This document shows, piece by piece, positions 36,397 through 60,922 of a DNA stretch of 64,000 nt. A model generated the notes under the pieces. That model was given only the letters and a program-made list of their open reading frames with translations, searched no databases and had not been told where the DNA came from. A program made the position numbers and the translations under genes. Position 1 is the first letter of the stretch. The number at the start of each line of letters is the position of its first letter. This DNA comes from Candidatus Falkowbacteria bacterium (lineage in GTDB: Bacteria; Patescibacteriota; Patescibacteriia; JAACEG01). Location of the stretch: contig JABIDK010000006.1 of assembly GCA_018651725.1 (NCBI GenBank), forward strand, positions 48,482 to 112,481, in the 5' to 3' direction.

Positions 36397-37143
36397 TTAA
36401 AATTCGTTAGAAATTAAGTCTTTAATCTCATTTTTTATCTTAATAAATTCACTGCTATTTTTTATAGAATTTTTCCGCGAATAAGAAAATGGAATTTTTA
36501 TTATTTTTTTAATCCTTGCCGGTCTTTCTGAAAAAACAATAATTTTATTTGATAGATAAATCGCTTCTTCTATGTCGTGAGTAATAATCAAAGCGGTTTT
36601 TTTTGTTTTTTGCCAGATGTTTAGTACTTCTTTGTGGATAGTTTCTCTGGTTTGGTAGTCAAGCGATCCGAAGGGTTCGTCCATTAAAATAAATTTAGGT
36701 TCGGCTGCTAGGGCTCTAGCCAAAGAGGCTCTTTTTTTCATACCACCGGAAAGTTGATGGGGGTAAGAATTAGCAAAGTCTTTAAGTCCCACCAACTCAA
36801 TATATTTATTAACAGTTTCTTGGTTTTTATTTACGCCGAACTTAACATTTTCATAAATATTCATCCAGTCAAATAAGTCTTCTTCTTGACTAATAACAAC
36901 CCGGTCTTTGCCGGGCTTTTTAATTGTTTTACTAGACAGAGTCGCCTCCCCCTTGGTTGGCTTTAAATAGCCGGCTAAAATATTTATTAAAGTGGTTTTC
37001 CCTGCTCCGGATGGACCAATAATAGAAACAAATTCTTGTTCCTCAATATCAAAACTAACATCCTCTAAAACCGGAATTTGTTTATTTTTTATTTGAAAAT
37101 TGTGAGAAATATTTCGGACTTTCAGCATATTTATATTTTCCAC
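36397..37143 (-). CDS. ABC transporter ATP-binding protein (NitT/TauT family)
   Basis: Walker A is 'GPSGAGKTT'. Signature is 'LSGGMKKR'. Walker B is 'ILMDEPFGSLD'. Confidence 0.85.
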   Translation of the reverse strand: MENINMLKVRNISHNFQIKNKQIPVLEDVSFDIEEQEFVSIIGPSGAGKTTLINILAGYLKPTKGEATLSSKTIKKPGKDRVVISQEEDLFDWMNIYENVKFGVNKNQETVNKYIELVGLKDFANSYPHQLSGGMKKRASLARALAAEPKFILMDEPFGSLDYQTRETIHKEVLNIWQKTKKTALIITHDIEEAIYLSNKIIVFSERPARIKKIIKIPFSYSRKNSIKNSSEFIKIKNEIKDLISNEF

Positions 37144-37880
37144 GGAATAAGCCTTTTTTCTAAAATAGAAATTATTTTATTTAGAAAATAACCAAGCATA
37201 CCGATTAAAATCATACCGATTATAATTTTTTCTGTTTGCAGTAAAAGTCTGTTTAGTTGGATAAAATAACCTAGCCCGGATTGAGCCCCGATTAATTCGG
37301 CTGCGATTACGCTCATCCAAGCCATGCCGATACCAATTCTCAGTCCGGTAAAAATGTAAGGCAGAGAAAAATAAAACAGTATTTTTTTAAAAAATATAAA
37401 TTTGGTTACTTCAAAAGAAAGAGCAACATTTTTGTAAACTCTAGGAAGAGACTTAACTCCGAAAAAAGTATTGGTAAAAATCGGAAAAAATGCTCCTAAA
37501 AAAACAATGAAATAAGCCGAGCCATTGCCCAGTCCAAAAATTAAAATAGCAATTGGTATCCAGGCTATCGGCGGAATAGGACGAAGTATTTCAACGATTG
37601 GATGAAAATAACTCCCTGCTTTTTTAAAGTAACCCAGTATTAAACCTAAAAAAACTCCGGTCACAGAAGCTAGTGTAAAACCAATCACTACTCTTTTTAA
37701 GCTTACAAAAATATGCTTAATTATTTCCCCTGATTCAAAGACTTTTATAAAAGTTAAGGCTGTATTTTTAGGAGAAGGCAAAATATAATTTTGAGGCCCT
37801 AAAATCAAAAAAACCCCTTGCCATAAAACAATCAAAGTAATAAATGTAATAAGTTTTTGTTTCATTTGTGGTTTTGTCAT
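37131..37880 (-). CDS. ABC transporter permease (NitT/TauT family)
   Basis: 6 TM with an EAA-like loop. It overlaps the ATPase start. The first codons overlap the repeat element, so the alternative Met at 37865 may be the true start. Confidence 0.75.
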   Translation of the reverse strand: MTKPQMKQKLITFITLIVLWQGVFLILGPQNYILPSPKNTALTFIKVFESGEIIKHIFVSLKRVVIGFTLASVTGVFLGLILGYFKKAGSYFHPIVEILRPIPPIAWIPIAILIFGLGNGSAYFIVFLGAFFPIFTNTFFGVKSLPRVYKNVALSFEVTKFIFFKKILFYFSLPYIFTGLRIGIGMAWMSVIAAELIGAQSGLGYFIQLNRLLLQTEKIIIGMILIGMLGYFLNKIISILEKRLIPWKI

Positions 37881-37990
37881 TCTGAGCGAAACGAAGTGGA
37901 GTCGAAGAATCTATTTGAATTGCGGTTTAATTTGAATCAGTAAGTAGATTTTCTAGATCCTTCGACTCGCTCCACTCGCCCAGGATGACA
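37875..37990. repeat. Palindromic (inverted-repeat) intergenic element, copy 2 of 2
   Basis: Arms are 'tgtcattctgagcgaaacgaagtggagtcgaagaatc' and 'gatccttcgactcgctccactcgcccaggatgaca'. It has the same termini as the element at 9743-9852. Confidence 0.6.
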
Positions 37991-38020
37991 GCATGAGTAT
38001 AACTATTTTATTTTTTTTAT

Positions 38021-39034
38021 TTACTTCAAATAACTCAAATCAATATAGTCTTTCATAGTAATTTGTTTGTCAATCATTTCTTGTCCAAAGAGAAAATCAG
38101 CTGCTTCTTGCATGATTGCGTAATCTTCTTCTTTAAAGTCAATGTAAATTTCCTCATCTGAGTTAGCGTTTACATTTGGCTCAATTGAAGCGGCGATTTC
38201 TAATGCTTTTGGAGTGATGTCCAGCTTAGCTTCTTCCGCAAACCAAGTATCGGATTGTTCTATATTGTTTCTGTAAAATTTATAAGCTCCGTTAAATGCT
38301 GTTAAAAATTGTTTTGGCGCATCAGGATTGTTTTTAATATATTCATTGTTCATTAAAATTACGCTAACAATTTTTCCAACAGCTAAATTTCTAACCAGTC
38401 CTTTTTCTTCTAGAATGGCAGGGGTTGGATCAAAGCCGGCTAGAGCATCTATCTCACCCCATTTTGTTGCTTCCGGATCTTTAACCAAATCACTTTGTTC
38501 GTAAATTCCCAGGTTAATATTATTTACATCTATCTTTGGATCAAGTCCTGCTTTTTGCTCTTCAGCTAAAGCCATTCTTTGCGCGGCTGCTCCAAACGGC
38601 ATAGCCACAGTTTTACCTTTAAGTCCGACTACGTCTTGAATATCAGATTTTGGTGGAACATAGAGCGAGGTTCGGTTGTACATTAAACGAGCAATAATAG
38701 TCCACTCCGGATTTTTATTTAAAAGCATGGCAGCTGGTTGATCAGCTGTAAAAACAACATCAACTTCGCCGGCAAGAGCGGCTTCGTTCAAAGGTCCACC
38801 ATAAGAAAACCCCTTAAAATCACCCTCTAAATTATTATCCTTCAAAAGATCAGTGTGTTTTAAAATTTGTGTTAACTGTCCCTCAGTAGCCCAAGGAATT
38901 TGCCAACCGATTCTGACTTTGGTTAACTCTTTTGTTTCTTCGCTTAGAGAATCAATCTCTTTTTCTCCAATTTGATACCCGATAAAGACCCCAACAGCTA
39001 GAGCCAATATCACAATAACCCAATTGTTTTTCAT
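38021..39034 (-). CDS. ABC transporter substrate-binding protein (NMT1/SsuA/TauA-like)
   Basis: N-terminal TM/signal. It is a periplasmic-binding-protein-type sequence adjacent to the permease and ATPase. Confidence 0.65.
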   Translation of the reverse strand: MKNNWVIVILALAVGVFIGYQIGEKEIDSLSEETKELTKVRIGWQIPWATEGQLTQILKHTDLLKDNNLEGDFKGFSYGGPLNEAALAGEVDVVFTADQPAAMLLNKNPEWTIIARLMYNRTSLYVPPKSDIQDVVGLKGKTVAMPFGAAAQRMALAEEQKAGLDPKIDVNNINLGIYEQSDLVKDPEATKWGEIDALAGFDPTPAILEEKGLVRNLAVGKIVSVILMNNEYIKNNPDAPKQFLTAFNGAYKFYRNNIEQSDTWFAEEAKLDITPKALEIAASIEPNVNANSDEEIYIDFKEEDYAIMQEAADFLFGQEMIDKQITMKDYIDLSYLK

Positions 39035-39057
39035 AGATTTTTTGATCCCTTTAAATC

Positions 39058-40020
39058 TTAAATTACATTCGGATTATTCGGATGTGAATTTGATTTATTC
39101 AGGTCGTTTATTAGTTTTTTAATAATAAAAGGTGTAAATAAAAATGCATGGGCGATAAAGCCGATTGCTGGGGCTAAAGCTGCTTTAGGGTCGTGTAATA
39201 GTAAAATTCCGCCGGCAATAGCGATGTTTTTCATTGAAATCGATAAAACAAGCGCGATAGAGTCTTCTTTATTTTTAAATTTATTTGCAATAAATCCCCA
39301 TAAAATAATGATAGCAAAATCTTGGACAAAGGCAAGGAATAATAATTTTGTCAGTAAAATATTGTTAGTATGGTTAAAGTTAAATTTATTAAAAGACACT
39401 CCAAATAAAATAAAAATTAAGGTTCCCAAGAAAACAAAATTTAAAATAGCTCCATTATTTGAAATTTTAGTATTTAATTTCGGCAAATATTTCCAAATTA
39501 AAAATCCAATCACAAGAGGCAAAGGAACAATAAGCAAAATATCTTTAAATAAAAGCATTGCAGAAACAGGAATTAACGAACCAACAAAAATTTTAAGCAT
39601 TAGAGGAATTACTAAAGGAGAAATTATCATCGAACTAAGTAAAATAGAATAAGAAAGCTCTTTATTTCCTTTTAATATTCTAGTAAAAAACGGTGCTACA
39701 ATAGCCGCTGGAGTCAAAGCCGAAAACACAGCTCCGTAAATATATTGATTGTCATCTAAAAGCGATTTTGCAAACAAAAAAATTATCAACGGCGAAACAA
39801 CAAAAAGAATAAAATTAGCAAAAATAATCTTTAAGGGATTTTTCAAGATATTTTTAAACTTTAACCAATCAATATTAGCGCTATTAAGCAGCATTAATAA
39901 AAATAAAAAAACTATTGCCAAAGGATGCAAGCTAACAGCAGTATAAGGAAAAATAAGCGCTAAAAATATTATAAAAAATATCCCCAAACCAAAATATTTT
40001 TGAAGCAAGTTGTTAAGCAT
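39058..40020 (-). CDS. Polytopic membrane transporter (BASS/ACR3/AEC-like)
   Basis: ~10 TM and 320 aa. No specific motif is assignable by eye. Confidence 0.35.
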   Translation of the reverse strand: MLNNLLQKYFGLGIFFIIFLALIFPYTAVSLHPLAIVFLFLLMLLNSANIDWLKFKNILKNPLKIIFANFILFVVSPLIIFLFAKSLLDDNQYIYGAVFSALTPAAIVAPFFTRILKGNKELSYSILLSSMIISPLVIPLMLKIFVGSLIPVSAMLLFKDILLIVPLPLVIGFLIWKYLPKLNTKISNNGAILNFVFLGTLIFILFGVSFNKFNFNHTNNILLTKLLFLAFVQDFAIIILWGFIANKFKNKEDSIALVLSISMKNIAIAGGILLLHDPKAALAPAIGFIAHAFLFTPFIIKKLINDLNKSNSHPNNPNVI

Positions 40021-40490: not shown

Positions 40491-42557
40491 ATGCAATTTG
40501 TCAATACTAAAACTCTGCGAATTTTATTTTTAATTATCATCGCTGTTTTAGTAGTTAATTTTGGTTACTCGTCTTTTAAGGAGAAAAAAAACAATACAGG
40601 CAAAAAAGTAAAACTTTATTGGTTTATTCCGGATGGGTTGCGGGCTGAGCCGGATTTATTTGATATTTATGCTTGGGCTCGCGAAGGAAGGTTACCGAAC
40701 ATTAAAAGAATGATGGATAAAGGTTCTTATGGGTTTACAGTCCCGGACTATCCTTCGCATACACCGGTTAATTTTGCTTCACTTTTAACAGGTTCGCATC
40801 CTAAGACACATGGGATTTCCGATGGACCGATGCGGGTCGAAGGTTATCCTTTGGATATTGTTCCTTTTTCCGGGTTTAAATCTAATGCCAAAAAAGTTCC
40901 ACCAGCCTGGCTTACCTTTGAAGATAACGATCTGGATGTATTTTTACTTTCTATGCCCGGCTCTACTCCGCCAGAACTATCACGCGGCACAACTGTTCGC
41001 GGTCGTTGGGGTGGCTGGGGAGCTGATTTTTATGCGGTTAACTTTCAGGACTCTACAGAGGAACTGGCGGAAGATTTTTTCTCGCGCAGTATGAGACTTT
41101 TTTACACCGGTCCGGAGTTAACGCAAACTTTAACATCCTCTCCTACTTTGGCTAAATTAGATTCTATTAAAAGTTATTCAGAGATAAAAGAAATAAAACT
41201 GGAAGCTTGGGACAAAACAGTTTATGGATTTATCTACGACTCAACTGATGATCAAAAAACAAACTACAATAAAATCGCTTTTTCATTTGATAAAAAAAAG
41301 ATCATTACCGATCTAGAAGACAAGAATTGGAGTGACTGGTTGCCGATAACCGTTAAGTGGCGGACAAAAGATGATTTTAATCTTTACACCACTAAAAAAA
41401 GTAAACTGGAGAGAAAATTTACAACCATCGATGTGCCAACAGAGTTTAAAATTAAAATTATCAAGTTAAGCAAAGATGGAAAGTTTAGAATCAGATTCTT
41501 TTACAATAATTTGAATAAATATTTAACTGCTCCTTCCGAAGTTGCTAAAGACTTGACCGAGAACGTCGGACCAATGGTTGATTTTGTTGATAATTTTCCG
41601 CCGCAGTTAATCTATTACCAAGAAGACAAAGAAACATTTTTAGAAGAAGCTGAAATGTCTTTTGACTGGCATAAAAATTCTGTTCCACATATTGTTCAAA
41701 ACTATTCCCCGGGAGTTATTTTGCATGATATTTATACTCCCAATCAAATGTTAACCAGTCGTTGGTGGCTGGGATATGTTGACCCGAACAGCGCGCGGTA
41801 TAACGATGTTAGTGAAGAAGAGCGAGAGACATTATGGCAGGAAGTTCATTGGATGTATAAAAAAATAGATGATATTGTGGGAGAGATCATGGATAATTTG
41901 GACGAGGAAAGTTATTTTGTTTTTACCTCTGACCATGGAGCCGCGCCACTCAATAAACGAGTTTATCTTAATAATTATTTTGCCAAAAAAGGGCTCTTAA
42001 AAATAAAGTATGATGAGAAAAATAAAATTTATGATATTGATTGGGATAACACCAAGGTAGCGTTCCTTAGAATGAACAGTATTTATATTAATCCGAATGG
42101 TTTGGGTGGAAATTGGAAAAGAGCCAAAGGCGAAGAGTACGAAAAATTACGAGAAGAAGTTATTAAATTATTAAATGAAATAAAAGACGAAAAAACCTTG
42201 TCTCCGGTAGAAAATGTGGTAAAATGGGAGAACGTAGAAGACTATCTTGATTTACCAAGCGATCGGGTTGGTGATTTAATAGTCTCAAATAAAATCGGCT
42301 ACGGCTGGAGCGAAGAAGTCAGTAAAGAAATGGAAATTTTTAAAACCCCGCTTAAGACCGGTTACAAACAAGCGATAAATCCTGAAGAGCACGCTGTCTG
42401 GGCACCGTTTATGATCATGGGACCAAACATCAAAGAAAATTTTCAGCTTGAAAATCCAATCAGTCATATCGACCAACTCCCAACCATTTTAAATCTAATG
42501 AAAATAGATATCCCTGATTATGTTGAAGGACGGGTTTTAGAGGAAGTAAAAAAATAA
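40491..42557 (+). CDS. Alkaline-phosphatase-superfamily enzyme (type I phosphodiesterase/nucleotide pyrophosphatase-like), membrane-anchored
   Basis: N-terminal TM. 'WFIPDGLRAEPD' is the metal-site region. 'FTSDHGAAP' is the DHG metal ligand motif. Confidence 0.6.
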   Translation: MQFVNTKTLRILFLIIIAVLVVNFGYSSFKEKKNNTGKKVKLYWFIPDGLRAEPDLFDIYAWAREGRLPNIKRMMDKGSYGFTVPDYPSHTPVNFASLLTGSHPKTHGISDGPMRVEGYPLDIVPFSGFKSNAKKVPPAWLTFEDNDLDVFLLSMPGSTPPELSRGTTVRGRWGGWGADFYAVNFQDSTEELAEDFFSRSMRLFYTGPELTQTLTSSPTLAKLDSIKSYSEIKEIKLEAWDKTVYGFIYDSTDDQKTNYNKIAFSFDKKKIITDLEDKNWSDWLPITVKWRTKDDFNLYTTKKSKLERKFTTIDVPTEFKIKIIKLSKDGKFRIRFFYNNLNKYLTAPSEVAKDLTENVGPMVDFVDNFPPQLIYYQEDKETFLEEAEMSFDWHKNSVPHIVQNYSPGVILHDIYTPNQMLTSRWWLGYVDPNSARYNDVSEEERETLWQEVHWMYKKIDDIVGEIMDNLDEESYFVFTSDHGAAPLNKRVYLNNYFAKKGLLKIKYDEKNKIYDIDWDNTKVAFLRMNSIYINPNGLGGNWKRAKGEEYEKLREEVIKLLNEIKDEKTLSPVENVVKWENVEDYLDLPSDRVGDLIVSNKIGYGWSEEVSKEMEIFKTPLKTGYKQAINPEEHAVWAPFMIMGPNIKENFQLENPISHIDQLPTILNLMKIDIPDYVEGRVLEEVKK

Positions 42558-42567
42558 TTTTTTTATT

Positions 42568-43164
42568 ATGAAATTAAAATATACAACAATTACATTAATC
42601 ATTTTAGTAGTAGGTATTTTTTTTATATATAAACAGCAAAATGATAACTCCCTCTACTCTACTCTTAAAAAAGAAGGTTTTAATTTGGAGTTGATTAATG
42701 ATTTTCAGATAAATAAAGATAACTTAAAAGAAAATCCTTATAAAAGCAGAATTATTTTAGCCAAAAACGATAATCTGCCAGCTGGCGGAGAAACAATTAA
42801 ATTAAAATTGCTTTATGATATGAATCAAGAGAAAGCTGAGGAATATATCGACGACCAAAAAGTTATTTTAACCAGTCTTTACGAGCCTATTCCACCGCCC
42901 TACCCTGAATTTATCGGCCAAGAAGTTAGTTGCGATGAAAAATATAAGCCAATTTTAAAAGAACATGAACTAGGAGAATATTATTTGCTTTACGCAGGAG
43001 AGCGATTTGGCTATGGAATTTGCGAGGAAGAAATGGTAAAGCATAAATCTCTTTTGGGATATTTTTATTGCGATAATAAATTAATTAAATTAGAATATTT
43101 TATAGATAAAAATCAAAATTTTGATTTAGTGGAAAAAATAATTAAAGATTTAAAGTGCATATGA
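42568..43164 (+). CDS. Membrane-anchored protein, paralog 1 of a three-member tandem family (unknown function)
   Basis: It shares the motifs 'YPYPEF', 'EC.EEYKP..KEH.LGEY.LLYA.E.FGYG.CEE' and 'LGYFYC.N...IEYF' with the next two ORFs. Confidence 0.5.
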   Translation: MKLKYTTITLIILVVGIFFIYKQQNDNSLYSTLKKEGFNLELINDFQINKDNLKENPYKSRIILAKNDNLPAGGETIKLKLLYDMNQEKAEEYIDDQKVILTSLYEPIPPPYPEFIGQEVSCDEKYKPILKEHELGEYYLLYAGERFGYGICEEEMVKHKSLLGYFYCDNKLIKLEYFIDKNQNFDLVEKIIKDLKCI

Positions 43165-43751
43165 TAAAAAAAATAATTTTAATTTTAATAATATTTGGTG
43201 GAGTAAGTTTTGGGGTTTGGAAATATAAAGAAAACCAAAGTAAATTTTTAGCCTACCATCTTAAAAGTATTGGTATAAAAATAGAACAAGCTGAAGATTT
43301 TTTAGTTACAGAAATAAGCGATCCCAAAAAAGGGAGCAAAGCAAGAACTATAACAGCCAAGAAAGATCAAGAAGAAATAAAAATAAAAATTGTAAATAAT
43401 GTTGAAAAAGACGAAGCCTTAAACTATATCGAAGATAAAAAAGAAAATTTTGAGAGTCTGTATAAATTAGCTAAAAACCCCTACCCTGAAGCAATGAAAA
43501 AACAAAAAGAATGCCCGGAAGAGTATAGGCCCGAAGTTAAAAAACACGGATACGGAGAATATTTTCTAACATATGCCGGAGAAGACTTAGGCTACGGTAT
43601 TTGCAAAGAAGATCTAGTCAGATATAAGGCAGTACTTGGATATTTTTACTGTGAAAATATAAGTTCTTTTATAAAGATTGAGTATTTTACATCAAAAGAA
43701 AAAAATCACGAAGAAATGAATTCATTAATAAACTCTTTTAGATGCGAATAA
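43155..43751 (+). CDS. Membrane-anchored protein, paralog 2
   Basis: Same conserved blocks ('NPYPEA...ECPEEYRPEVKKHGYGEYFLTYAGEDLGYGICKED...LGYFYCEN...IEYF'). Its start overlaps the stop of paralog 1. Confidence 0.5.
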   Translation: MHMIKKIILILIIFGGVSFGVWKYKENQSKFLAYHLKSIGIKIEQAEDFLVTEISDPKKGSKARTITAKKDQEEIKIKIVNNVEKDEALNYIEDKKENFESLYKLAKNPYPEAMKKQKECPEEYRPEVKKHGYGEYFLTYAGEDLGYGICKEDLVRYKAVLGYFYCENISSFIKIEYFTSKEKNHEEMNSLINSFRCE

Positions 43752-45487
43752 AGTACTTTAAAATTTTAATCATCATAAGTGGGGTTATTATTTTATTTTT
43801 TGTATATCAAAATTATACTAGCTCTTTAACTCATAATTTACAGAAAATAGGGTTAAGCTCAAAAGGATTATATGGCTTTAAGGTCGATGAACAAATCAAT
43901 TTTCAAGAACAAGTTATTGTTGCCAAAAAAAATGATGAGCAAATAAAAATAAAAATTACTCCAGATGTAAGTAATATAGAAGTGTTGAAATTAATTTCTA
44001 AAGAGGAAGAATTTTTGACAAGTATGTATGATTCCGTGCTCTATCCCTACCCTGAGTTTTTAGATAAAAAAAATGAGTGTGTAGAAGAATATAAGCCAAT
44101 AAAAAAAGAGCATGGACTAGGGGAATATTTTTTGCTATACGCTAAAGAAAATTTTAATTACGGAGCTTGTGAAGAAAAAGAAGCAAAATATAAAATACTG
44201 CTTACATTTTTTTATTTAGAAGAAGAGAATATTTTTTTGGAGTTGGAGTATAGCATATCAAAACAAAAAAGATTTTCTTCAATGGAAGAAATTATTAATA
44301 CTATAAAAGCCGACGACGAGGTCCTGAGCCTCGCTGGGCGGAATCAAGATGACACGACAGAGAAAGAGTTTTCTCAAAATGACACAAATAAAAATAAAAT
44401 AGAAATTTTCAGTGTGGCTGGTTGTCCTTTTACTCGCGATTTGGTGCATGCGCTGGCTCTTTTTTTAAAGAAAACAAATCAAGAAATTAGAGATAGTATG
44501 GATATAAAAATATCTTATTACGGCAAAGAATATGAAAAAGGCAAGTTTATCTCTTATCATGGTAAAGAAGAGCCGAAGCTGAATATTCTGGAGCTTTGCA
44601 TTATTGATAAGTACCCTGATAATTTAGAATATTTTTATATTATTGACTGTCTTTTTCAAAAAGTAAATTTAAGTAAGATAGATGAAAGCATTACGGATTT
44701 AATGGGTAGTTGGGAGACGTGTACTAAGGATGTGGCAGTTAATAAAAATGACGAAGTTAAAAAATGTGCCTCTTCAGAAGAGGGAAAAGATCTTTACAGG
44801 GAATCTATAGCTTATATTACCACTAAAAAATATGCTAAATTTCCGCCGATTTTGCGATTTAATGATAAAAATTTCCCCACTGTTAAGCCGGACGCCTTTA
44901 GACTTGAGCTCTGTAAAAAATTGGATAATAGTAGTTTGGAGTGCTTGGATATACCAGAGTGTTACGGAGAAGCTAACTGTCAAGACAAGAAAAATAAAGC
45001 GTCGTTTTGTATGAAAAATAAATGTGAATATGGTGATAAAATAAAAATGATTGTACTAACAGATGATTTTACAGATACTGAAAACAATTATGCTATAGAA
45101 TGGTATAGCTTGTTATACGGAGAATTTGATGTTGAGCATATTAATATTAATAGTTTTAAGGGTAGCCAATTAGCAAAAGAATTAAATTTACTGGAATTTC
45201 CGGTGATATTAATCGATGATCGTATTGAAAAAATAAACAGATTCAAAGAAAGGTTTGGCTACACCAGACTTATATTTTCTAACAAAAAAAATAATTGGTA
45301 CATTGTTGATCATGACAGGTTTAGTTTTACTAACGCAATTATTCGTGATCAGATTCAAAATGCTGAAGGAATTCATTTTCGAGATAGCGGGCTTAAAACC
45401 TCGGATAAAATGAAAGAATATTTTGGGAACCGCCCTGAATTTTACAAAGAATCAAAAGAATATTTTAATGAAAATTTTTTACAATGA
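43742..45487 (+). CDS. Paralog 3 with ~370-aa C-terminal extension (possible thioredoxin-like modules)
   Basis: The N-terminal 200 aa carry the family blocks. The extension has 'FSVAGCPFTRD' and 'EFPVILIDD', which resemble thioredoxin-fold motifs. This is inference only. Confidence 0.45.
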   Translation: MRIKYFKILIIISGVIILFFVYQNYTSSLTHNLQKIGLSSKGLYGFKVDEQINFQEQVIVAKKNDEQIKIKITPDVSNIEVLKLISKEEEFLTSMYDSVLYPYPEFLDKKNECVEEYKPIKKEHGLGEYFLLYAKENFNYGACEEKEAKYKILLTFFYLEEENIFLELEYSISKQKRFSSMEEIINTIKADDEVLSLAGRNQDDTTEKEFSQNDTNKNKIEIFSVAGCPFTRDLVHALALFLKKTNQEIRDSMDIKISYYGKEYEKGKFISYHGKEEPKLNILELCIIDKYPDNLEYFYIIDCLFQKVNLSKIDESITDLMGSWETCTKDVAVNKNDEVKKCASSEEGKDLYRESIAYITTKKYAKFPPILRFNDKNFPTVKPDAFRLELCKKLDNSSLECLDIPECYGEANCQDKKNKASFCMKNKCEYGDKIKMIVLTDDFTDTENNYAIEWYSLLYGEFDVEHININSFKGSQLAKELNLLEFPVILIDDRIEKINRFKERFGYTRLIFSNKKNNWYIVDHDRFSFTNAIIRDQIQNAEGIHFRDSGLKTSDKMKEYFGNRPEFYKESKEYFNENFLQ

Positions 45488-45624
45488 ATAAAATTTGCAA
45501 AAAATGCGTTTTGCCGGAAAGTAGGCCAAATATTTATTTAAACGATCAAGAGATTTATAATGTTTGCCTTGAAGATAAAAAGCAGGATAAGGAGGAGAAA
45601 TTATTGAAGTCTCTGGCAAGATGA
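45484..45624 (+). pseudogene. Detached N-terminal zinc-ribbon fragment homologous to the amidotransferase at 46310
   Basis: 'MNKICKKCVLPESRPNIYLNDQEIYNVC' aligns with 'KKICKKCILPETRPDIWLNEEGVCSVC' of the downstream gene. The ORF stops after 46 codons without a PP-loop. Its ATG overlaps the upstream stop (ATGA). Confidence 0.4.
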
Positions 45625-45665: not shown

Positions 45666-45908
45666 ATGATTAAAAAAATCTTTGAAAAACAAAAAAAGTT
45701 TTTAATGCCCATGGTTAAGAAAGCGCAAAAAGTAATTGTTGCAATACTTTTGTTTTTATTGTATATTTTTGGATTTGGTTTAACAGCTATAATTTTATTG
45801 ATTTTTAATAGAAAGCTTTTGGGTTTTAAAAAAAGAGACAAAAATACATTTTGGGAAGATGCTAAAGGATATGAGACTGATACAGCTAAAAATTTAAGAC
45901 AATTTTAA
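45666..45908 (+). CDS. Small membrane protein of the kind found beside carbamoyltransferases (SxtJ-like)
   Basis: 80 aa with one TM and a charged tail. The call rests on position upstream of a DUF5989-like ORF and a carbamoyltransferase. Confidence 0.4.
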   Translation: MIKKIFEKQKKFLMPMVKKAQKVIVAILLFLLYIFGFGLTAIILLIFNRKLLGFKKRDKNTFWEDAKGYETDTAKNLRQF

Positions 45909-45909
45909 T

Positions 45910-46071
45910 ATGCAAAAAGTAATTTATATCTTAAAAGAATTATTTGGTTTAATTAAAGCTCACAAGCTTTATATTTTAACGCCGATTTTAGTAATGCTAG
46001 CTCTTATATCTTTTTTGGTTTATTATATAGGCCCTACTGTTATAATTTCTTTTATTTATGCGGGAGTTTAA
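45910..46071 (+). CDS. DUF5989-like (SxtK-like) small membrane protein
   Basis: 53 aa, 'MQKVIYILKELFGLIKAHKLYILTPILVMLALISFLVYYIG'. This is the typical sequence pattern of the short partner of SxtJ-like proteins. It is missing from the ORF track because it is under 60 aa. Confidence 0.4.
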   Translation: MQKVIYILKELFGLIKAHKLYILTPILVMLALISFLVYYIGPTVIISFIYAGV

Positions 46072-47329: not shown

Positions 47330-49051
47330 ATGACTATATTAGGAATATCTTGTTATTACCATGATTCATCAGCCTGTCTTATAAAGGACGGCAAGTTAGT
47401 TGCGGCTGTTCAAGAAGAAAGATTTGATCGAAATAAATATTCATCCGCTTTTCCTATAAACTCTATTAATTATTGCCTCCAATCCGCTAATTTAACCTCT
47501 TATGATATTGACTATGTAGCTTTTTATGAAAAGCCCTTTTTAAAATTTGAAAGAATAATTTTGAATCACTTAAGATCTTATCCCTTTTCTTTAAAAAATT
47601 TTTTAGATACAACACCTCATTGGCTTAAAGATAGGCTAATCTTGCCACTAACACTTAAAGAAGAGCTGGGTTTCAAAGGAGATGTTTTTTTTATTAAACA
47701 TCATCTGGCTCATGCGGCAAGTACTTTTTTAACATCTCCTTTTGATAAAGCGGCAATTTTAACGGTGGATGGAGTCGGAGAATGGGCTACTACAACTTAT
47801 GGAACAGGAAAAGATAATAAAATAAATGTGTTAAAAGAAATTAAATACCCAAACTCTCTAGGACTTCTTTATTCAATTGTAACAACTTATCTTGGCTTTA
47901 GGGTTTTTTCTGGGGAGGGCAAGGTTATGGCCCTTGCTGAAACTGGTGACCCAAAATATTTAGATAAATTTAAAAAAATAATCAGCATCAAAGATGACGG
48001 TAGCTTTAGATTAAATAAAAAATATTTTTATTTTAATAAAGGTGGGCGGATGTATAACAATAATTTTATTAAACTTTTCGGTGATCCAAGAAGGGAAAAA
48101 GAGGATATTAAAGATAGGCATCGGGACGTAGCGGCTAGCTTACAAAAAACAGTAGAGGATATTATTTTAAAGATGGTTAAGCATATTCACAAAGAGACTG
48201 GTCTTGATAATTTGTGTCTCGCAGGAGGTGTTTTTTTAAATGTTACAACTAATACTAGAATAGTAAAAGAGTCTTTTTTCAAAAATGTTTTTATCCAACC
48301 AGCTGCCGGAGATAACGGTAGTGCCTTGGGAGCGGCTTTTTATGTGTATAATTCTTTAAAAAATCAACCAAGAAAGCATGTTATGAAAAATGCTTGTTTG
48401 GGGCCAGAATATAGTGATAAAAAAATTAAGATCTTTTTATCAAACAAGGGTGTTAAATTTAAACGACTAGAGAACGATGAACTGACAAAATATGTTGCCA
48501 AAAAAATTTCTCAAGATAAAATAGTTGGTTGGTTTCAAGGACGAATGGAGTTTGGTCCGCGAGCTTTGGGAAATAGGAGTATTTTAGCAAATCCCGGTAA
48601 TCCGAAAATAAAAGATATTTTAAACAAGAAAGTAAAGCACCGTGAATCATTTCGACCATTTGCAATCAGTATTTTACGCGAAGATTTAAATGATTTTTTT
48701 GACCTTGAAATTGATAGTCCTTTTATGCTTTTGGTCGGTAAGGTTAAAAAAGACGAGGTGAATTCCGGAGGAAGAGAGGGTGGTCTGGGCCAAAAAAAAG
48801 AATTAATTCCTGGAGCGCTTCACACTAATAATACCTCTCGTATCCAAACTGTTAAAAAAGAAGACAATGAGCTTTACTATAATTTAATTAAAGAATTTAA
48901 AAATATCACCGACTTACCTCTTGTAATTAACACCTCTTTTAACGATCAAGAGCCAATAGTCTGCACGCCCGAAGAAGCTTATAATTGCTTCGCAAGAACT
49001 AAAATCGATGTTTTAGTATTAGGAAATTATATCGTTGAAAAATATGTTTAA
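47330..49051 (+). CDS. Carbamoyltransferase (NodU/CmcH family)
   Basis: 'ILGISCYYHDSSACLIKDGKLVAAVQEERF' is the Kae1/YgjD-like N-domain of NodU-type O-carbamoyltransferases. Length is 573 aa. Confidence 0.8.
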   Translation: MTILGISCYYHDSSACLIKDGKLVAAVQEERFDRNKYSSAFPINSINYCLQSANLTSYDIDYVAFYEKPFLKFERIILNHLRSYPFSLKNFLDTTPHWLKDRLILPLTLKEELGFKGDVFFIKHHLAHAASTFLTSPFDKAAILTVDGVGEWATTTYGTGKDNKINVLKEIKYPNSLGLLYSIVTTYLGFRVFSGEGKVMALAETGDPKYLDKFKKIISIKDDGSFRLNKKYFYFNKGGRMYNNNFIKLFGDPRREKEDIKDRHRDVAASLQKTVEDIILKMVKHIHKETGLDNLCLAGGVFLNVTTNTRIVKESFFKNVFIQPAAGDNGSALGAAFYVYNSLKNQPRKHVMKNACLGPEYSDKKIKIFLSNKGVKFKRLENDELTKYVAKKISQDKIVGWFQGRMEFGPRALGNRSILANPGNPKIKDILNKKVKHRESFRPFAISILREDLNDFFDLEIDSPFMLLVGKVKKDEVNSGGREGGLGQKKELIPGALHTNNTSRIQTVKKEDNELYYNLIKEFKNITDLPLVINTSFNDQEPIVCTPEEAYNCFARTKIDVLVLGNYIVEKYV

Positions 49052-52000
49052 AAAAATAACTTTAATTTTTTTAGGAGTTTTGATATCTCTAACTTTGCTT
49101 GAGATCAGTTTGCGTTTAGCCGGCAAAGGGTTTTTGTATATTCAAGAAAAAAGAAATATAGTTAGTGAAGAAAAAAATGTTTTTACGATTTTGTGTATCG
49201 GAGAATCAACTACTGCGCTTGCCGGGGATAAAACCAATATTTTTTTAACGGATAAGGAATCTTTTCCAAGACAGTTGGAAGAGATTTTAAATGAAAAATA
49301 CGATGATACGGAATTTAAAGTTATCAATAAAGGTATAATGGTCGGTGATTCAATAAAAATCTTAAGGGAACTAGAAGATGACTTAAATGAATATAATCCC
49401 GATATGGTGATTTCTATGATGGGATTAAAAGACACAAATCATACCTCGCTCTTTAATAAACCAATGATTCTGTCCGGAAATAAGAAAATTGATGAAAAGG
49501 AAGACGATTTTTTTTGGGAGAAGTTTAAAATCTATGGCCTTGTAGGTTTTATTAAAGAGCGCTTGGGAAATAACAAAACCTTGGAAGAAAAAATAGATTT
49601 AGAGGGATTAGCCGAAGATGTTTATTTTACACCTGATCTTTACGCTCGGATTTTTCACTTTAAAGAAGGAGAACGCATCGATGAAGGCACAATGAAAAAA
49701 CTTCTTATAGGGAAATTTTATGAGGATCGGGGCATGTATACTGAGGCAGAAAAGATATATAAAGAAGAAGTGAAAAATAAAAAAGCCGGGTATTTGGGGC
49801 TGGTCAGCGTTTACACACAGGAAGAAAAGTTTATAGAAGCTGAGGAAGTATTAAAAAAGGCCATCAGCGAAAATCCAAATTACAGTATTTACATAGCTGA
49901 GCTAGGAAAGCTCTATGAGGAAATAAATAAAGAACAAGAAGCTGAAGAAATGTTTTTGCAGGCCATTGAAATAGACGCAAACGAATATGTTTATATTGAG
50001 GCCGGTAAATTCTATAAAGTAACCGGTAACCATAAAAAAGCCGAGGAGATGTTTTTGCGCGCTATTGAAGTAAATGAAAAAGAATTTTACGCTTTTGAAG
50101 AAGCCGGTAAATTTTACAAAGAAGTTGGTAACCAAGAAAAAGCTGAAGAGCTGTTTCTAAAAGCAATTGAAGTTAATCCGCAAAAACACACGAGTTATCT
50201 TAATCTTGAAGATCTTTATAGTCAACAAAAAGATTATATTAAAGAGGAGAATATTTACAAGCAAGCGATTGTTGCTAACCAGAGAATCGGCGAATACTTT
50301 GAGCTTGTGAAATTTTATCAAAATCATGAAAAAGAAGAAGGTGCTAAAAAAGTTTTTGTTGACGCTCTTAAAAATGTTCCCTCTTATGGACATAACTACA
50401 AAATGCTTTTAGAAATTTTAGAGGAAAAAAATATACCTTTAGTAGCTATGGGCTACCCTTCTTATAATTTGGGTTTATTAAAAAATATTTTCCCTGAAAA
50501 TGATAAAATAACATTTATTGATAATAAAAATGTTTTTGAAAGTAGAGATCAAGAAGATTTTTATTTTGAAAATAAATTTCCTTATCAATTTAATCATTAC
50601 ACAAAATTGGGAGCCAAATTAATAGCAGACAATATTGCCAGCGCTATCGAAGATAGTGTTAAAAAAATAAATCAGCCAGAGGCTGGTCAGTCTCTGGCTG
50701 AAAAACAAGAATTAGGGGTTGATTTATCTTGTCCGGATTGCAATCTGATTGTTGTGTCTCTTTCTAATGTTCGGAAGGATCATTTGGGGCTTTATGGATA
50801 TTCTCGCGATACCTCCCCTAATATCGATGAATTTTTTAAAGATTCAATTGTGTTTGACTCTACTTTTGCACCGGCTTCTTGGACTTTCACAAACGCGGTT
50901 TCGTTTTTGACATCGCTTTCTCCGTATAAACATGGTATAATGGAAAGGAAGAAAAATGTTAATTTATCAAAGATAAATAACATAAAATTTTTAGCTGAAA
51001 TTTTAAAAGATAATAACTATAAAACAGCCGCTTTTGTCAGTGATGAAGACTATAACCGCAAATATGGGCTGAATAGGGGCTTTGATACTTTCTTTGATAA
51101 AAATAGTTATTTTGATTATGGCATAAAGTTTAATCCCGGGGAGTATAATATCGGGACCAAGCAACTTGTTGGTCCGGCCGTAGATTGGATGAAAGAAAAT
51201 TATAAAGATAAATTTTTTTTGCTTCTTCAGGGTTTTGATGCTCATTGTCCGTATACGCCAAATAGCCCTTACGATAAAAAATTTAGTTCTAAGGAGAGTA
51301 AACAAGATTTTTCTGAGTGCTATATTACTCCTAAAGTTGTTGAATCAATAGAAACAGATAGTGGAAAAAAGTGGCCATTGCAAAGCTGGTCTTCCTTTAA
51401 AGAAAAAGGAGATGAAAAAATATTGTTTAAGAAAGAAGATATCGAACAAATGATAACGCTTTATGATGGAGAAATAGCCCAAGCCGATAATAATTTAAAA
51501 GATTTGTTTGAAACAATAGAAGATCTGGACTTAACAAAAAATACAATAATTGTTTTCTTGTCAGAACACGGTGAATTATTTGGTGAAAACGGATTTTTTA
51601 TGAGAGTTTCTTTAAGCGCTCAGGGAACTTTAAACGATAAAATAATTAATATTCCTTTTATAATGAAGCATCCTAAGGTAGATAGAGCGATGCAAATTGA
51701 TAGTCTAGTTCAATTGATTGATTTAGCGCCTACTTTTTTACAGATCTTAGGACTGGAAGGATACTATGGCGGGCAGATGCAGGGTAAAAGTATTGTACCG
51801 GTTATTACTAAAAACAAAGAAGTGAATGAATTTGTTTATGGGGGCGTAAAGCGAAAACATTCTATTTATGATCCAGACGAGGTTTTTCTAACCGAGTTTA
51901 TTAGAGACAAGCAATGGAAGCTGTTAAAAGAAATAATAATAAACAGTAAATCACAAGAGCAAATTTCGGAATTTTACGGACTTTATAATACAATAAAAGA

Positions 52001-52094
52001 TTCTGAGGAGAAAGAAAATTTATATGATCAAAATAACAATATAGCAAAACAATTATTAAATAATTTAAACTTATGGGTAACAGAACAAAAGTAA
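49035..52094 (+). CDS. Multidomain membrane-anchored protein: SGNH-like hydrolase blocks split by TPR repeats, plus C-terminal sulfatase-fold (AlkP-superfamily) domain
   Basis: N-terminal TM. 'LCIGESTTA' is like SGNH block I. 'FNHYTKLGAKLIA' is like block V. Between them are ~6 TPR-like repeats ('AEEMFLQAIEID...AEELFLKAIEVNP'). The C-terminus has 'CPDCNLIVVSLSNVRKDHLGLYGY' and 'SEHGELFGENG'. Confidence 0.55.
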   Translation: MKNMFKKITLIFLGVLISLTLLEISLRLAGKGFLYIQEKRNIVSEEKNVFTILCIGESTTALAGDKTNIFLTDKESFPRQLEEILNEKYDDTEFKVINKGIMVGDSIKILRELEDDLNEYNPDMVISMMGLKDTNHTSLFNKPMILSGNKKIDEKEDDFFWEKFKIYGLVGFIKERLGNNKTLEEKIDLEGLAEDVYFTPDLYARIFHFKEGERIDEGTMKKLLIGKFYEDRGMYTEAEKIYKEEVKNKKAGYLGLVSVYTQEEKFIEAEEVLKKAISENPNYSIYIAELGKLYEEINKEQEAEEMFLQAIEIDANEYVYIEAGKFYKVTGNHKKAEEMFLRAIEVNEKEFYAFEEAGKFYKEVGNQEKAEELFLKAIEVNPQKHTSYLNLEDLYSQQKDYIKEENIYKQAIVANQRIGEYFELVKFYQNHEKEEGAKKVFVDALKNVPSYGHNYKMLLEILEEKNIPLVAMGYPSYNLGLLKNIFPENDKITFIDNKNVFESRDQEDFYFENKFPYQFNHYTKLGAKLIADNIASAIEDSVKKINQPEAGQSLAEKQELGVDLSCPDCNLIVVSLSNVRKDHLGLYGYSRDTSPNIDEFFKDSIVFDSTFAPASWTFTNAVSFLTSLSPYKHGIMERKKNVNLSKINNIKFLAEILKDNNYKTAAFVSDEDYNRKYGLNRGFDTFFDKNSYFDYGIKFNPGEYNIGTKQLVGPAVDWMKENYKDKFFLLLQGFDAHCPYTPNSPYDKKFSSKESKQDFSECYITPKVVESIETDSGKKWPLQSWSSFKEKGDEKILFKKEDIEQMITLYDGEIAQADNNLKDLFETIEDLDLTKNTIIVFLSEHGELFGENGFFMRVSLSAQGTLNDKIINIPFIMKHPKVDRAMQIDSLVQLIDLAPTFLQILGLEGYYGGQMQGKSIVPVITKNKEVNEFVYGGVKRKHSIYDPDEVFLTEFIRDKQWKLLKEIIINSKSQEQISEFYGLYNTIKDSEEKENLYDQNNNIAKQLLNNLNLWVTEQK

Positions 52095-53848: not shown

Positions 53849-53860
53849 TTTTAATTCAGT

Positions 53861-56515
53861 ATGAAGAAATTTATTATAATTTTATTTTTTGTATTAAGCG
53901 TTATTTTAATAACGCTTTTTTTCTCTGGTAAAACTGTTGATAGTGACCCGTTAAATTGTAAGGATTGTAATTTAATAATTATTTCTCTTACAAATACGCG
54001 CAAGGATAATCTCGGTATCTATAATCACAAAGAAATAACATCTCCTAATATTGATAATTTTTTCAAAAATTCACTTATTTTTGAAAATACTTTTTCTCCT
54101 TCTCCTTGGACACTTCCAAATGCTGCTACTTTATTTACCACCCTGCCACCTTTTAAACATAAAGTTATAAGTAGATACAAAGACAATAAACTGCCAAAAA
54201 ATGCAAAAACTTTAGCTCAAATTTTACAAGATAACAACTATAAAACAGCTGCTTTTACCGGGGGTGGAGATTATGATCGAAGTTATGGTTTCAATAAAGG
54301 CTTTGATGAGTATTATGACGAAAAAAAATTTGCCAAGCTAGATTACTATAAAGATGATATTATTTCTTGGTTAAACACTAATGAAAAAGATAAGTTTTTC
54401 TTATTCTTGCAAGGTTTTGATACGCACTGCCCTTTTTCTCCACCATCTTCACCAGAGACAAAAACATGTTTTTGGAATTTACATGATTCAGAAGAAGATT
54501 TAGTTTACACTCAGGGTGATAATAATGAGACAATCACAAAGATATTAAGCGAAAACGACAAGGAACAATTAAAAAACCTTTACAATGAAGAGATCCAGGA
54601 AGCGGATAATAATTTAGGAGAAATTTTTAAAACTATAACGGATTTAAAATTAGACAAAAAAACCATCATTGTTTTTTTGTCAGAGCACGGGGATTTACTG
54701 GGAGAAAAAAATCAATTTATGAGAACAGATGTAATTGGCAGTTTTTCCGATAAGGTTTTAAATATTCCTTTTCTTATTAAGCACCCCTTTATTAAAACAA
54801 AACAAAAAATCAATGAACTTGTACAATTGTCAGATGTAATGCCAAGTGTTTTAAGGATGTTAAATATTGATTATAAAAAAGAAAATTTACAAGGAAAAGA
54901 TATAACATCTTTGGTTAGTAGTAATAAAAAAATTAATGATTATGTTTACGCCGGGCTTACTTACAAGGGCACAGAAGACAGCCAATTTTTTAGAGATATA
55001 AGACTGGGGAGTATGATTAGAGATTTGAACAATAAATTAGTTCATTATCAGATTTTTGATTTAGAAAACAATAGTTCTACAAAAGATTATTATGAATTTT
55101 ATAATATTAAAAAAGATTCAAGTGAATTAAATAATAATATAAAAGAAGCAATTTCTACACCGGAATTTAAAAGTTTAAAAAATAAATTGTTTACAATAGA
55201 AAATAAAACAGTGAAAGAATTTTCTTTACCGTCTTTATTTGCCTCACAAATTGATAATGTTGTTTTAATCACAATCGATACGTTGCGCGCAGATCATTTG
55301 AGCTTTATGGGTTATCCTCGTAACACCTCACCCTTTTTAGATAAATTAGTAAAAAAAAGCATTTTATTTAAAAATGCTCACACAGTTATTCCAAACACCG
55401 CCCCATCTCACGCCTCTATTTTTACAGGCTTATATCCGTCACAGCATGGAGTAACAAATCAATACGAGGAACTAGAGGAACAGTTTGTGACCATAGCGGA
55501 AGTTTTTCAAGAAAACAGATACAAAACGTTGGGATTTTCTTCTAGTCAATTTTTATTTTCTGAAAATAATTTAAATCAAGGATTTGGCTTCATAAAGGAA
55601 ATAATACCTCAAAAAAATAAAAGATATTTCGGGAGGCCGGCAAGTGTTGTAATAAACAAGGTTATAGAAAAATTACCATCGAAAAATTCATTTTTATGGG
55701 TACATTTTTTAGATCCACATTATCCGTTTAATACTTATAACTCAGATTTTAAAAATAAATTTACTGATACCGACGATAGTCTTGTAGAATTTTGGATAAA
55801 AAATCAGGGAGTAAACTTAGATATCTATAAAAAAAACAAAAAAGAAAATTTAATAAAAACAATGAATGCCTATGACACGGAGATTTTATTTGTTGATCAG
55901 CAAATTGAAAAACTATATAATCACTTTGAGGAAAAAGGATTAAATAGCAATACGCTTTGGGTAATCACTTCTGATCACGGCGAAGGTCTGGGGAGTCATG
56001 ATTTTTTTGAACATGGAAATAAGTTGTACGAAGAAGAGTTGCTTGCCCCGATTATCTTTAAATTTCCAGGTCAACTTCAGCTGGAATCAAAAACAATAAA
56101 TACTTTGGTAGAAAATATTGATATTATGCCAACCATTTTGGATATTATGGATCTTCCTTTAAGTGACATAGAGATGCAAGGCAAATCATTGTTTGGGAAA
56201 ATTTTAGGAGACAAAAGTAAAGACGAGGAGTTTTCTGTTGCCTGGACAGGTAATCTTCCTAAGGGAGTAAGAAACCCGGAAATTGAGAGTATCAATTTTG
56301 ATAATGTTATTTGGGATGGTAATAAAATATCTATTCAAAATAATGAGTACAAATATATTTATAATATAGATATAGAAACTAAGAATGAACTTTACGATTT
56401 TAGAAATGATCCGCTTGAGAAAAATAACTTAATAAATAAATCATCGAACAAAGCAGATGAATTTAAAAATATTTTAATGCAAAAAATTAAGGAATTAAAA
56501 ATTTTACCAATTTAA
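53861..56515 (+). CDS. Membrane-anchored protein with two tandem sulfatase-fold (AlkP-superfamily) domains
   Basis: Domain 1 has 'CKDCNLIIISLTNTRKDNLGIY' and 'SEHGDLLGEKN'. Domain 2 has 'VVLITIDTLRADHLSFMGYPRNTSPFLD', 'NTAPSHASIFTGLYPSQHG' and 'TSDHGEGLGSHDFFEHG'. Confidence 0.6.
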   Translation: MKKFIIILFFVLSVILITLFFSGKTVDSDPLNCKDCNLIIISLTNTRKDNLGIYNHKEITSPNIDNFFKNSLIFENTFSPSPWTLPNAATLFTTLPPFKHKVISRYKDNKLPKNAKTLAQILQDNNYKTAAFTGGGDYDRSYGFNKGFDEYYDEKKFAKLDYYKDDIISWLNTNEKDKFFLFLQGFDTHCPFSPPSSPETKTCFWNLHDSEEDLVYTQGDNNETITKILSENDKEQLKNLYNEEIQEADNNLGEIFKTITDLKLDKKTIIVFLSEHGDLLGEKNQFMRTDVIGSFSDKVLNIPFLIKHPFIKTKQKINELVQLSDVMPSVLRMLNIDYKKENLQGKDITSLVSSNKKINDYVYAGLTYKGTEDSQFFRDIRLGSMIRDLNNKLVHYQIFDLENNSSTKDYYEFYNIKKDSSELNNNIKEAISTPEFKSLKNKLFTIENKTVKEFSLPSLFASQIDNVVLITIDTLRADHLSFMGYPRNTSPFLDKLVKKSILFKNAHTVIPNTAPSHASIFTGLYPSQHGVTNQYEELEEQFVTIAEVFQENRYKTLGFSSSQFLFSENNLNQGFGFIKEIIPQKNKRYFGRPASVVINKVIEKLPSKNSFLWVHFLDPHYPFNTYNSDFKNKFTDTDDSLVEFWIKNQGVNLDIYKKNKKENLIKTMNAYDTEILFVDQQIEKLYNHFEEKGLNSNTLWVITSDHGEGLGSHDFFEHGNKLYEEELLAPIIFKFPGQLQLESKTINTLVENIDIMPTILDIMDLPLSDIEMQGKSLFGKILGDKSKDEEFSVAWTGNLPKGVRNPEIESINFDNVIWDGNKISIQNNEYKYIYNIDIETKNELYDFRNDPLEKNNLINKSSNKADEFKNILMQKIKELKILPI

Positions 56516-56527
56516 CAACAGCCCCAT

Positions 56528-57907: not shown

Positions 57908-57908
57908 T

Positions 57909-60918: not shown

Positions 60919-60922
60919 AAAA

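Follow-up and report, generated by a model that had tools for sequence, protein, structure and literature searches.

A 64,000-nucleotide stretch of a Candidatus Falkowbacteria genome (contig JABIDK010000006.1, positions 48,482 to 112,481 of the forward strand; here called the window) carries three tandem open reading frames, ORF1, ORF2 and ORF3, directly after a gene for a membrane-anchored phosphodiesterase of the AlkP superfamily. The three products are membrane-anchored paralogs from a sequence family without a name, and their common core of about 170 residues is predicted to have a Mog1p/PsbP-like fold. In mechanism and ALTERNATIVES, we hold with moderate confidence that this family is a non-catalytic, membrane-tethered PsbP-fold accessory subunit of AlkP-superfamily ecto-enzymes. 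Gene structure, fold, extracytoplasmic topology, family size, synteny and gene fusions were all observed computationally, and we infer physical binding and the non-catalytic role.

The link to the upstream phosphodiesterase, which the preliminary description of this DNA had proposed from gene order in the window, is the strongest result of the analysis. A pattern search of GTDB with one genome per species, based on a 20-sequence subset that samples only the PPYPEF(L/I)T subgroup, gave 10 loci from Nitrospinota, Rokubacteria, Parcubacteria, Kaiserbacteria, Saccharibacteria, Paceibacterota and other Patescibacteria. At all 10 loci the family gene is followed directly by an ORF of 656-668 amino acids (aa), a full-length ortholog (46-50% identity) of the 688-aa phosphodiesterase in the window; the loci also contain 1-3 genes of the sulfatase family. 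A scan of metagenomes yielded 23 loci, partly overlapping the GTDB set. Every one of the 18 with enough flanking DNA contains a phosphodiesterase ortholog, which lies directly downstream of the family gene in 16 and at 3.1 kb, behind two sulfatase-like genes, in the other two. Among divergent members, P0036 is followed by a 661-aa Phosphodiest gene and has archaeal-looking neighbours, and P0040 comes immediately behind a 430-aa Sulfatase gene and has additional Sulfatase, Phosphodiest and PMT_2 genes close by. The reverse search started from remote phosphodiesterase homologs and applied the hidden Markov model (HMM) of the family to six-frame translations. It found a family gene 2.7 kb upstream, adjoining a sulfatase-like gene, in Gammaproteobacteria, 4.6 kb downstream, before a sulfotransferase-sulfatase gene, in Woesearchaeota, and directly downstream, the same as in the window, in Chloroflexales. 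The contents of more than 30 family neighbourhoods are a gene like those of nucleotide pyrophosphatases/phosphodiesterases (NPP), sulfatase-like genes, GT-C enzymes and transporters.

Fusions to a Sulfatase domain (PF00884) occur in six of the 150 best family members; the family domain precedes the Sulfatase domain in P0004, P0073 and P0128 and follows it in P0123, P0130 and P0150. In a close relative, whose phosphodiesterase is the closest to that of the window (75% identical), the next gene encodes a 679-aa protein composed of a transmembrane (TM) helix, a family domain (HMM score 190, residues 2-194) and a sulfatase-like domain, and this fusion, at 10084-12123 of L031, occupies the place of the three paralogs. 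Adjacency across phyla, including archaea, together with repeated independent fusion is strong evidence that the family shares a function with AlkP-superfamily ecto-enzymes.

The assignment of the upstream gene also held. Its product matches Phosphodiest (PF01663, E 1e-26) and has the AlkP-core fold, the Thr nucleophile and the Asp/His metal ligands of NPP / type I phosphodiesterases. More than 1121 homologs were found at E<=1e-20, for which the only names are 'alkaline phosphatase family protein' and 'predicted AlkP superfamily phosphohydrolase'; Woesearchaeota, Nanoarchaeota, Chloroflexales, Elusimicrobiota and Gammaproteobacteria are among their sources. Twelve orthologs taken from different phyla share 47-51% identity, with about 190 invariant positions. 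An identity of about 50% across bacteria of the Candidate Phyla Radiation (CPR), free-living bacteria and DPANN archaea points to spread by horizontal transfer and to strong constraint. The enzyme has a beta-rich insertion of about 135 residues (residues ~210-345) that is absent from otherwise similar ENPP structures and sits inside a stretch of about 340 aa splitting the PF01663 match.

The preliminary description could not place the core in any known sequence family, and neither could we. The core of ORF1-3 had no match in Pfam, NCBIfam, PHROGs or PADLOC, and a PDB sequence search gave no credible match with a 3-member profile and none at all with a 130-member profile. When 150 and 130 members were scanned singly, no recurrent Pfam family appeared even at E<=10 and no NCBIfam family appeared; the Pfam PsbP, DUF1795 and Mog1 profiles matched none of these 130-150 members in hmmscan, also at E<=10. 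Profile matches to a characterised family, which had been named as the finding that would remove the novelty, thus did not turn up at the sequence level. Family proteins are called 'hypothetical protein' or are unnamed in their source records, and no paper on the core family or its gene trio was found in the literature searched. A word-indexed homolog search with ORF2 retrieved ORF2 itself only. The family became visible through an exhaustive hmmsearch of a TM-less three-sequence profile against 1.84 billion representatives, which gave 774 proteins at E<=1e-3, 314 at E<=1e-10 and 22 at E<=1e-30. These representatives are clusters at 50% identity, and the family therefore has at least 774 of them; conservation outside the source genome, on which a functional reading had been made to depend, is present. 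Members are mostly 180-210 aa long, and P0016 and P0120 each contain two family domains in tandem. Judged by sequence, the family is new, with no Pfam or NCBIfam model.

The fold is not novel. An AlphaFold2 model of ORF2, built from a 150-sequence alignment, has a mean predicted local distance difference test score (pLDDT) of 94.3 and a predicted template modelling score (pTM) of 0.85. Its elements are, in order, a TM helix (residues 2-26), two beta-hairpins, a long helix, a loop (100-124), four strands and a C-terminal helix. The loop, which holds the PYPE motif and C118, is less confident (pLDDT about 80). The model shows an alpha-beta-alpha sandwich with a central antiparallel sheet that superposes on PsbP, Mog1p and DcrB, and structure prediction and fold comparison together place the core in the Mog1p/PsbP-like class.

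Within this class, PsbP, CyanoP and PnsL1 (PDB 2xb3, 7wg5_f) are only 5-6% identical in sequence to the core and have no PsbP motif in common with it. They are lumenal extrinsic proteins of photosystem II and NDH, whereas the host here is a non-photosynthetic CPR bacterium. The 64-kb window contains no photosystem genes and the neighbours are AlkP-type enzymes; the core is not a PsbP proper. The core family differs from PsbP in having a TM anchor or lipobox of its own, two conserved putative disulfides, AlkP-superfamily partners and the signature PYP(E/G)...C..(F/Y).P...R..YG.C..DL..Y. The inner-membrane lipoprotein DcrB (DUF1795, PDB 6e8a) and the mycobacterial LpqN, MTC28, Apa and TiME have no detectable sequence relationship to the core. 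They differ from it in motifs, in Cys pattern and in genomic partners, which for the core family are the NPP-like phosphodiesterase and Thr-type sulfatase-like genes. ORF1-3 have uncleaved-type signal anchors without a lipobox and do not match the DUF1795 profile, nor does any of the homologs scanned. DcrB and LpqN are bacterial PsbP-fold proteins that serve membrane enzyme or transporter complexes, a role resembling the one that we propose. The extracellular sensor domain of PknH (PDB 4esq) belongs to a Ser/Thr kinase, whereas proteins of the core family lack any cytoplasmic signalling domain and have just a short N-terminus and a TM helix.

Fold class and tight gene pairing are shared with Tsi3, TplEi and Smlt3025, the immunity proteins of type VI and type IV secretion systems (T6SS and T4SS), and with the Eag (DUF1795) chaperones. 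These act purely through protein-protein binding to the product of a neighbouring gene, as the core family would on our reading. In the core family, unlike these proteins, the partner is a conserved housekeeping-type ecto-enzyme and fusions with enzymes of that class occur in nature. PsbP/MOG1 domains in toxin systems have been described (PMC3482391; 10.1101/2025.01.14.632903). No toxin (PAAR, Rhs, Tle or Tse) or secretion genes were found near the family in more than 30 loci, and PADLOC gave none. The fold and the general idea of PsbP-fold proteins as accessory modules of membrane complexes are already known; what is also new here, beside the sequence family, is the disulfide and loop signature and the cross-domain tie to an uncharacterised NPP-like enzyme and Thr-type 'sulfatases'.

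The conserved residues are given here in ORF2 numbering, with counts from 150 members. The first half of the signature consists of PYP(E/G) with invariant Y108, C118, (F/Y)122-x-P124, YYxLYA and R142 (137/150), and the second half of Y145-G146 (the Gly invariant), C148, D151-L152, Y155, Y163-C164, E174-x-F176-x-P178 and S192-x-x-C195. Position 110 is Gly instead of Glu in much of the family, where the consensus is SPYPG. ORF1 keeps the family-typical Arg (GERFGYG) and all four Cys. ORF2 also has all four Cys and has Asp at the position of R142. The core of ORF3 has Asn there and has lost both C164 and C195 (the C3/C4 pair), as has P0004.

The preliminary description read the conserved Cys, Glu and Tyr as signs of an extracytoplasmic binding or redox function. 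The extracytoplasmic binding part of this reading is supported, and the redox part is not. Hydrophobic N-terminal segments occur in 120 of 134 full-length members and lipobox-like sites in 32 of 134, which together place the core outside the cytoplasmic membrane. The four conserved Cys (118, 148, 164 and 195) lie 30-31 residues apart within each putative pair, and there is no CxxC motif; with its PsbP-like fold, the core is not of the thioredoxin or Dsb type. All four Cys are present in 126 members, eight lack only C164 and C195, four lack only C118 and C148, and five, including the fusion protein P0128, have none; unpaired losses are confined to a few members. Because the Cys are lost pairwise and co-vary, C118-C148 and C164-C195 would be two structural disulfides rather than a redox centre.

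In the window, the three overlapping paralogs are real and tightly coupled, as first described. An alignment of their N-terminal ~195 residues extends over the full length and has 48 invariant columns, among them the blocks PYPE, C.E.Y.P..K.H..GEY.L.YA.E...YG.C.E and F(Y/F)...EY; the shared ~120-aa blocks quoted at the outset are thus borne out by the alignment. Pairwise identities in BLASTP are 37-38% (E 1e-30 to 1e-41). In each protein a short basic stretch comes first and a hydrophobic segment next, and ORF2 has the same architecture as ORF1. The stop of the phosphodiesterase gene is separated from the start of ORF1 by 10 nt. At the ORF1/ORF2 junction, gtgcatATGAtaa, the overlap is a 4-nt ATGA when counted from the ATG and 10 nt from the GTG, and at the ORF2/ORF3 junction, agATGcgaaTAAag, it is 10 nt. 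From 40.5 kb to the end of the window all genes are on the + strand and tightly packed. No terminator-like hairpin was found between the triplet genes, and a scan for promoter and terminator consensus sequences did not exceed shuffled background, so the operon reading rests on spacing and strand. All three copies would be on one transcript and made by coupled translation. The source is a Candidatus Falkowbacteria metagenome-assembled genome (matched to GCA_018656705.1), and the locus occurs in identical form across many metagenome assemblies.

The preliminary description had asked whether the triplet recurs in related genomes. As a contiguous unit it is not conserved. Most genomes have one family copy, upstream of the phosphodiesterase, and a relative has its copies split or fused to a sulfatase-like domain. 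In the genome of P0020 (L030), the order is phosphodiesterase, a 94-aa gene, genes of 196 and 202 aa that are presumed to be family members, a 586-aa gene, two sulfatase-like genes, a 79-aa gene, a GILT fusion, an 80-aa peptide, TusA, a PP-loop gene and a carbamoyltransferase. The contiguous triplet is a local rearrangement and not a conserved unit. Identity to homologs elsewhere is 58% (P0004) and 44% (P0005) for ORF1 and 42% (P0007) for ORF2. A recent tandem duplication was rejected, since the paralogs of the window are as far apart from one another as from homologs in other phyla; the equal distances indicate old, diverged paralogs. A mobile or defence element was also considered and rejected; nothing supports it, and PADLOC and PHROGs gave no matches.

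The extension of ORF3 had been described as thioredoxin-like, and a thioredoxin fold is confirmed by a match of residues 219-312 to the Pfam family PF03227, GILT (gamma-interferon-inducible lysosomal thiol reductase), which scores 42.7 bits (E 7e-11) where the cut-off is 22.4. The same residues weakly match human GILT in the PDB (6nwx). The motif is AGCPFT, with Thr in place of the second Cys of a redox CxxC, and P0020 has SACPFT. Unlike GILT, the ORF3 domain is a CPFT monothiol, lies behind a PsbP-fold domain and is followed by a Cys-rich region of ~270 aa, which contains the 'EFPVILIDD' string and has no family match. A word-indexed search found the extension in only two protein clusters, ORF3 itself and P0020 (L030; 56% identity). 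Only this GILT-like extension of ORF3 is plausibly redox-active, by a CPFT motif and not CxxC. A lineage-specific part in thiol-disulfide chemistry, such as mixed-disulfide or isomerase reactions on secreted components that contain Cys, is plausible for it.

The sulfatase-like enzymes that accompany the family have a common feature at the active site. In a BLAST-anchored read-out of 36 sulfatase-like domains from the window (49035-63813) and related loci (L010-L031), Thr occupies the C/S-x-P-x-R position in 34, mostly as W-T-L-P, and none of the 36 has a Cys nucleophile or the motif Arg. Formylglycine (S1) sulfatases, which need a maturase, were rejected because the nucleophile is Thr. Thr nucleophiles are known in the AlkP superfamily from NPPs, LtaS, EptA/MCR-1 and PafA. 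The Thr nucleophile makes phosphoester hydrolases or transferases more likely, and annotations as 'arylsulfatase A-like enzyme' are probably wrong for the WTLP subfamily. The enzymes of this class in the cluster have single N-terminal anchors throughout. The setting is envelope or surface phosphoester chemistry, whether it decorates glycoconjugates or scavenges external esters whose products are then taken up.

The other genes around the triplet are listed in Table 1. The TPR/GDSL + sulfatase-like protein, whose sulfatase-like part is C-terminal, is an enzyme of the class found beside the core family and in some cases fused to it. It corresponds to two genes (539 and 501 aa) in the related L030 (10392-13578), by either a fusion in the window lineage or a split in L030. 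The double sulfatase-like protein has two complete tandem domains of different subtypes, PWTLPNA and NTAPSH. The 591-aa ORF has its sole homolog among the fetched loci in L030 (43%), between family and sulfatase-like genes. The 46-aa ORF copies the N-terminus of the WbuX-like PP-loop gene (53% over 40 aa), including its zinc-ribbon-like CxxC...C, and is probably a leftover of duplication or rearrangement. The 80-aa and DUF5989 peptides presumably resemble the SxtJ/SxtK-type peptides that accompany carbamoyltransferases elsewhere. On the other side of the phosphodiesterase, the 91-aa ORF is a gene call in most assemblies of the population, and an 88-aa gene lies at the same place in a relative; it has no family match. 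An SsuA-family ABC transporter and an SBF/BASS symporter also adjoin the phosphodiesterase in a gammaproteobacterium, a Desulfobulbaceae metagenome-assembled genome and the close relative (L026, L028, L031), and this recurrence suggests uptake of a product of the ecto-enzymes. Sulfotransferase-family genes are also present at the Gammaproteobacteria and Woesearchaeota loci.

Table 1. Coordinates of the triplet and of its neighbouring genes in the window
Feature	Position	Strand	Description
SsuA-type ABC transporter (ATPase, permease, binding protein) and SBF-family symporter	36397..40020	-	
Multi-hydrophobic ORF	40145-40420	-	91 aa; between the SBF gene and the phosphodiesterase gene
NPP-type phosphodiesterase	40491..42557	+	688 aa, membrane-anchored; conserved genomic partner of the family
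ORF1 (paralog 1)	42568..43164	+	198 aa; signal-anchor helix and predicted PsbP/Mog1-fold core; HMM score 203.8
ORF2 (paralog 2)	43161..43751	+	196 aa from ATG at 43161 (start in public annotations); alternative GTG at 43155 gives 198 aa; signal anchor and predicted PsbP/Mog1-fold core
ORF3 (paralog 3), entire	43742-45487	+	581 aa
ORF3, N-terminal part	43742..44332	+	signal anchor and predicted PsbP/Mog1-fold core; HMM score 154.5, residues 4-189
ORF3, GILT-like thioredoxin-fold domain	44396..44677	+	aa 219-312; Pfam PF03227
ORF3, Cys-rich C-terminal region	44678..45487	+	aa 313-581; no family match
46-aa ORF	45484-45624	+	ATG overlaps ORF3 stop (ATGA); gene call in all assemblies of the population
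Small membrane protein	45666-45908	+	80 aa, no family match
DUF5989 membrane peptide	45910-46071	+	53 aa
TusA-like protein	after DUF5989 peptide	+	
WbuX-like N-acetyl-sugar amidotransferase (PP-loop gene)	46310-47326	+	
NodU-like carbamoyltransferase	before TPR/GDSL + sulfatase-like gene	+	
TPR/GDSL + sulfatase-like protein	49035..52094	+	1019 aa; Thr at formylglycine position (SWTFTN)
ORF without Pfam or NCBIfam match	52073-53848	+	591 aa
Double sulfatase-like protein	53861..56515	+	884 aa; Thr at the nucleophile position in both domains
Two PMT_2 (GT-C) glycosyltransferases and three more sulfatase-like genes	after double sulfatase-like protein	+	sulfatase-like domains at 57909-59432, 59407-60918 and 60923-62461

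As an accessory subunit, the core, held by its two disulfides, would dock onto the NPP-type phosphodiesterase and/or the Thr-nucleophile sulfatase-like enzymes. The docked core would stabilise, hold or orient these enzymes at the membrane, or present a membrane-proximal phosphoester substrate. The likely functional surface is formed by the conserved loops that C118-C148 would tether, PYP(E/G)...C..(F/Y).P and R..YG.C..DL..Y. We also infer a partner specificity of the copies, each of which would probably serve a different AlkP-type enzyme. The window contains a single NPP-like enzyme along with two sulfatase-like domains of the WTLP type, and a one-to-one pairing of the three paralogs with them is a guess. 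The job of the monothiol GILT-like domain in the third copy could be to handle disulfides of secreted Cys-containing components. Several points weigh against an accessory subunit. Conserved adjacency and fusion prove a functional link and not binding. A Desulfobulbaceae locus has the phosphodiesterase and no family gene within 6 kb (HMM on six-frame translations), which indicates that the enzyme has no strict need for an adjacent partner. ORF2 and ORF3 have replaced the Arg kept by 137 of 150 members, a possible functional drift, and the conserved polar residues Y108, R142, D151, Y155 and E174 could equally form a small-molecule site.

A core that binds a small molecule might be a free-standing carrier, shuttling a membrane-derived compound (a lipid head-group, a glycolipid or a phosphoester product) between the membrane, the AlkP-type enzymes and the SsuA-type ABC and SBF transporters without a stable enzyme complex. 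We consider this rather unlikely, since family proteins are membrane-tethered and the sulfatase-like fusions in both orders fit a cis-acting enzyme module better. PsbP helps to hold Ca2+ and Cl- at the Mn cluster of photosystem II, and by analogy the core might be a cap that loads or keeps metal ions over the bimetallo active site of the AlkP-type enzymes. However, this analogy rests on fold only: identity to PsbP is 6%, there is no common motif and no Pfam PsbP match at E<=10, and E110 is Gly in much of the family, so that a metal-retention role seems quite improbable. Tsi3 and TplEi neutralise T6SS effectors, and in a similar way the core might block the adjacent phosphodiesterase and shield the membrane of the producer. 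The chance of such an immunity function is small, because the phosphodiesterase is membrane-anchored and, unlike fast-evolving toxins, about 50% identical from CPR bacteria to DPANN archaea, the loci have no secretion-system, PAAR, Rhs or polymorphic-toxin features or PADLOC matches, and in-cis fusions to the enzyme class would be atypical. Least probable is a redox-active core, in which the conserved Cys, Glu and Tyr do thiol-disulfide or other redox chemistry. Four highly conserved Cys and the fusion of one paralog to a GILT-like thioredoxin-fold domain would fit it, but there is no CxxC, the Cys are far apart and lost pairwise, five members have none of the four, the fold is not thioredoxin-like and the GILT fusion is limited to two protein clusters.

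Extending the accessory-subunit reading, the PsbP-fold protein might be the obligatory third part of a widespread extracytoplasmic phosphoester module, made of the NPP-like enzyme with its beta-insert and 'WTLP' enzymes, often with SsuA-type ABC and SBF uptake systems, that has spread horizontally among CPR, DPANN and free-living phyla. In ultra-small episymbionts, this Falkowbacteria among them, such a module might harvest or remodel phospholipid or glycolipid head-groups of the host. The PsbP-fold protein would then act on the substrate channel or metal site of the enzyme in much the way that PsbP acts on photosystem II, and each paralog would have its own enzyme. We offer this scheme as speculation and think it unlikely.

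On present evidence the family offers a solid lead that can be tested, rather than a surprising new mechanism. A sizeable family without a model (at least 774 clusters at 50% identity) gains a predicted fold, a location and a specific conserved partner, an NPP-type ecto-phosphodiesterase of ~670 aa, together with Thr-nucleophile enzymes that are now mislabelled as sulfatases. The annotation is corrected in that proteins called 'arylsulfatase A-like' in these clusters cannot be formylglycine sulfatases. CPR bacteria and DPANN archaea, in whose small genomes these genes stand out, depend on hosts for lipids and nutrients, and the three-part surface module would be a testable handle on external phosphoester processing or envelope modification in these cells.

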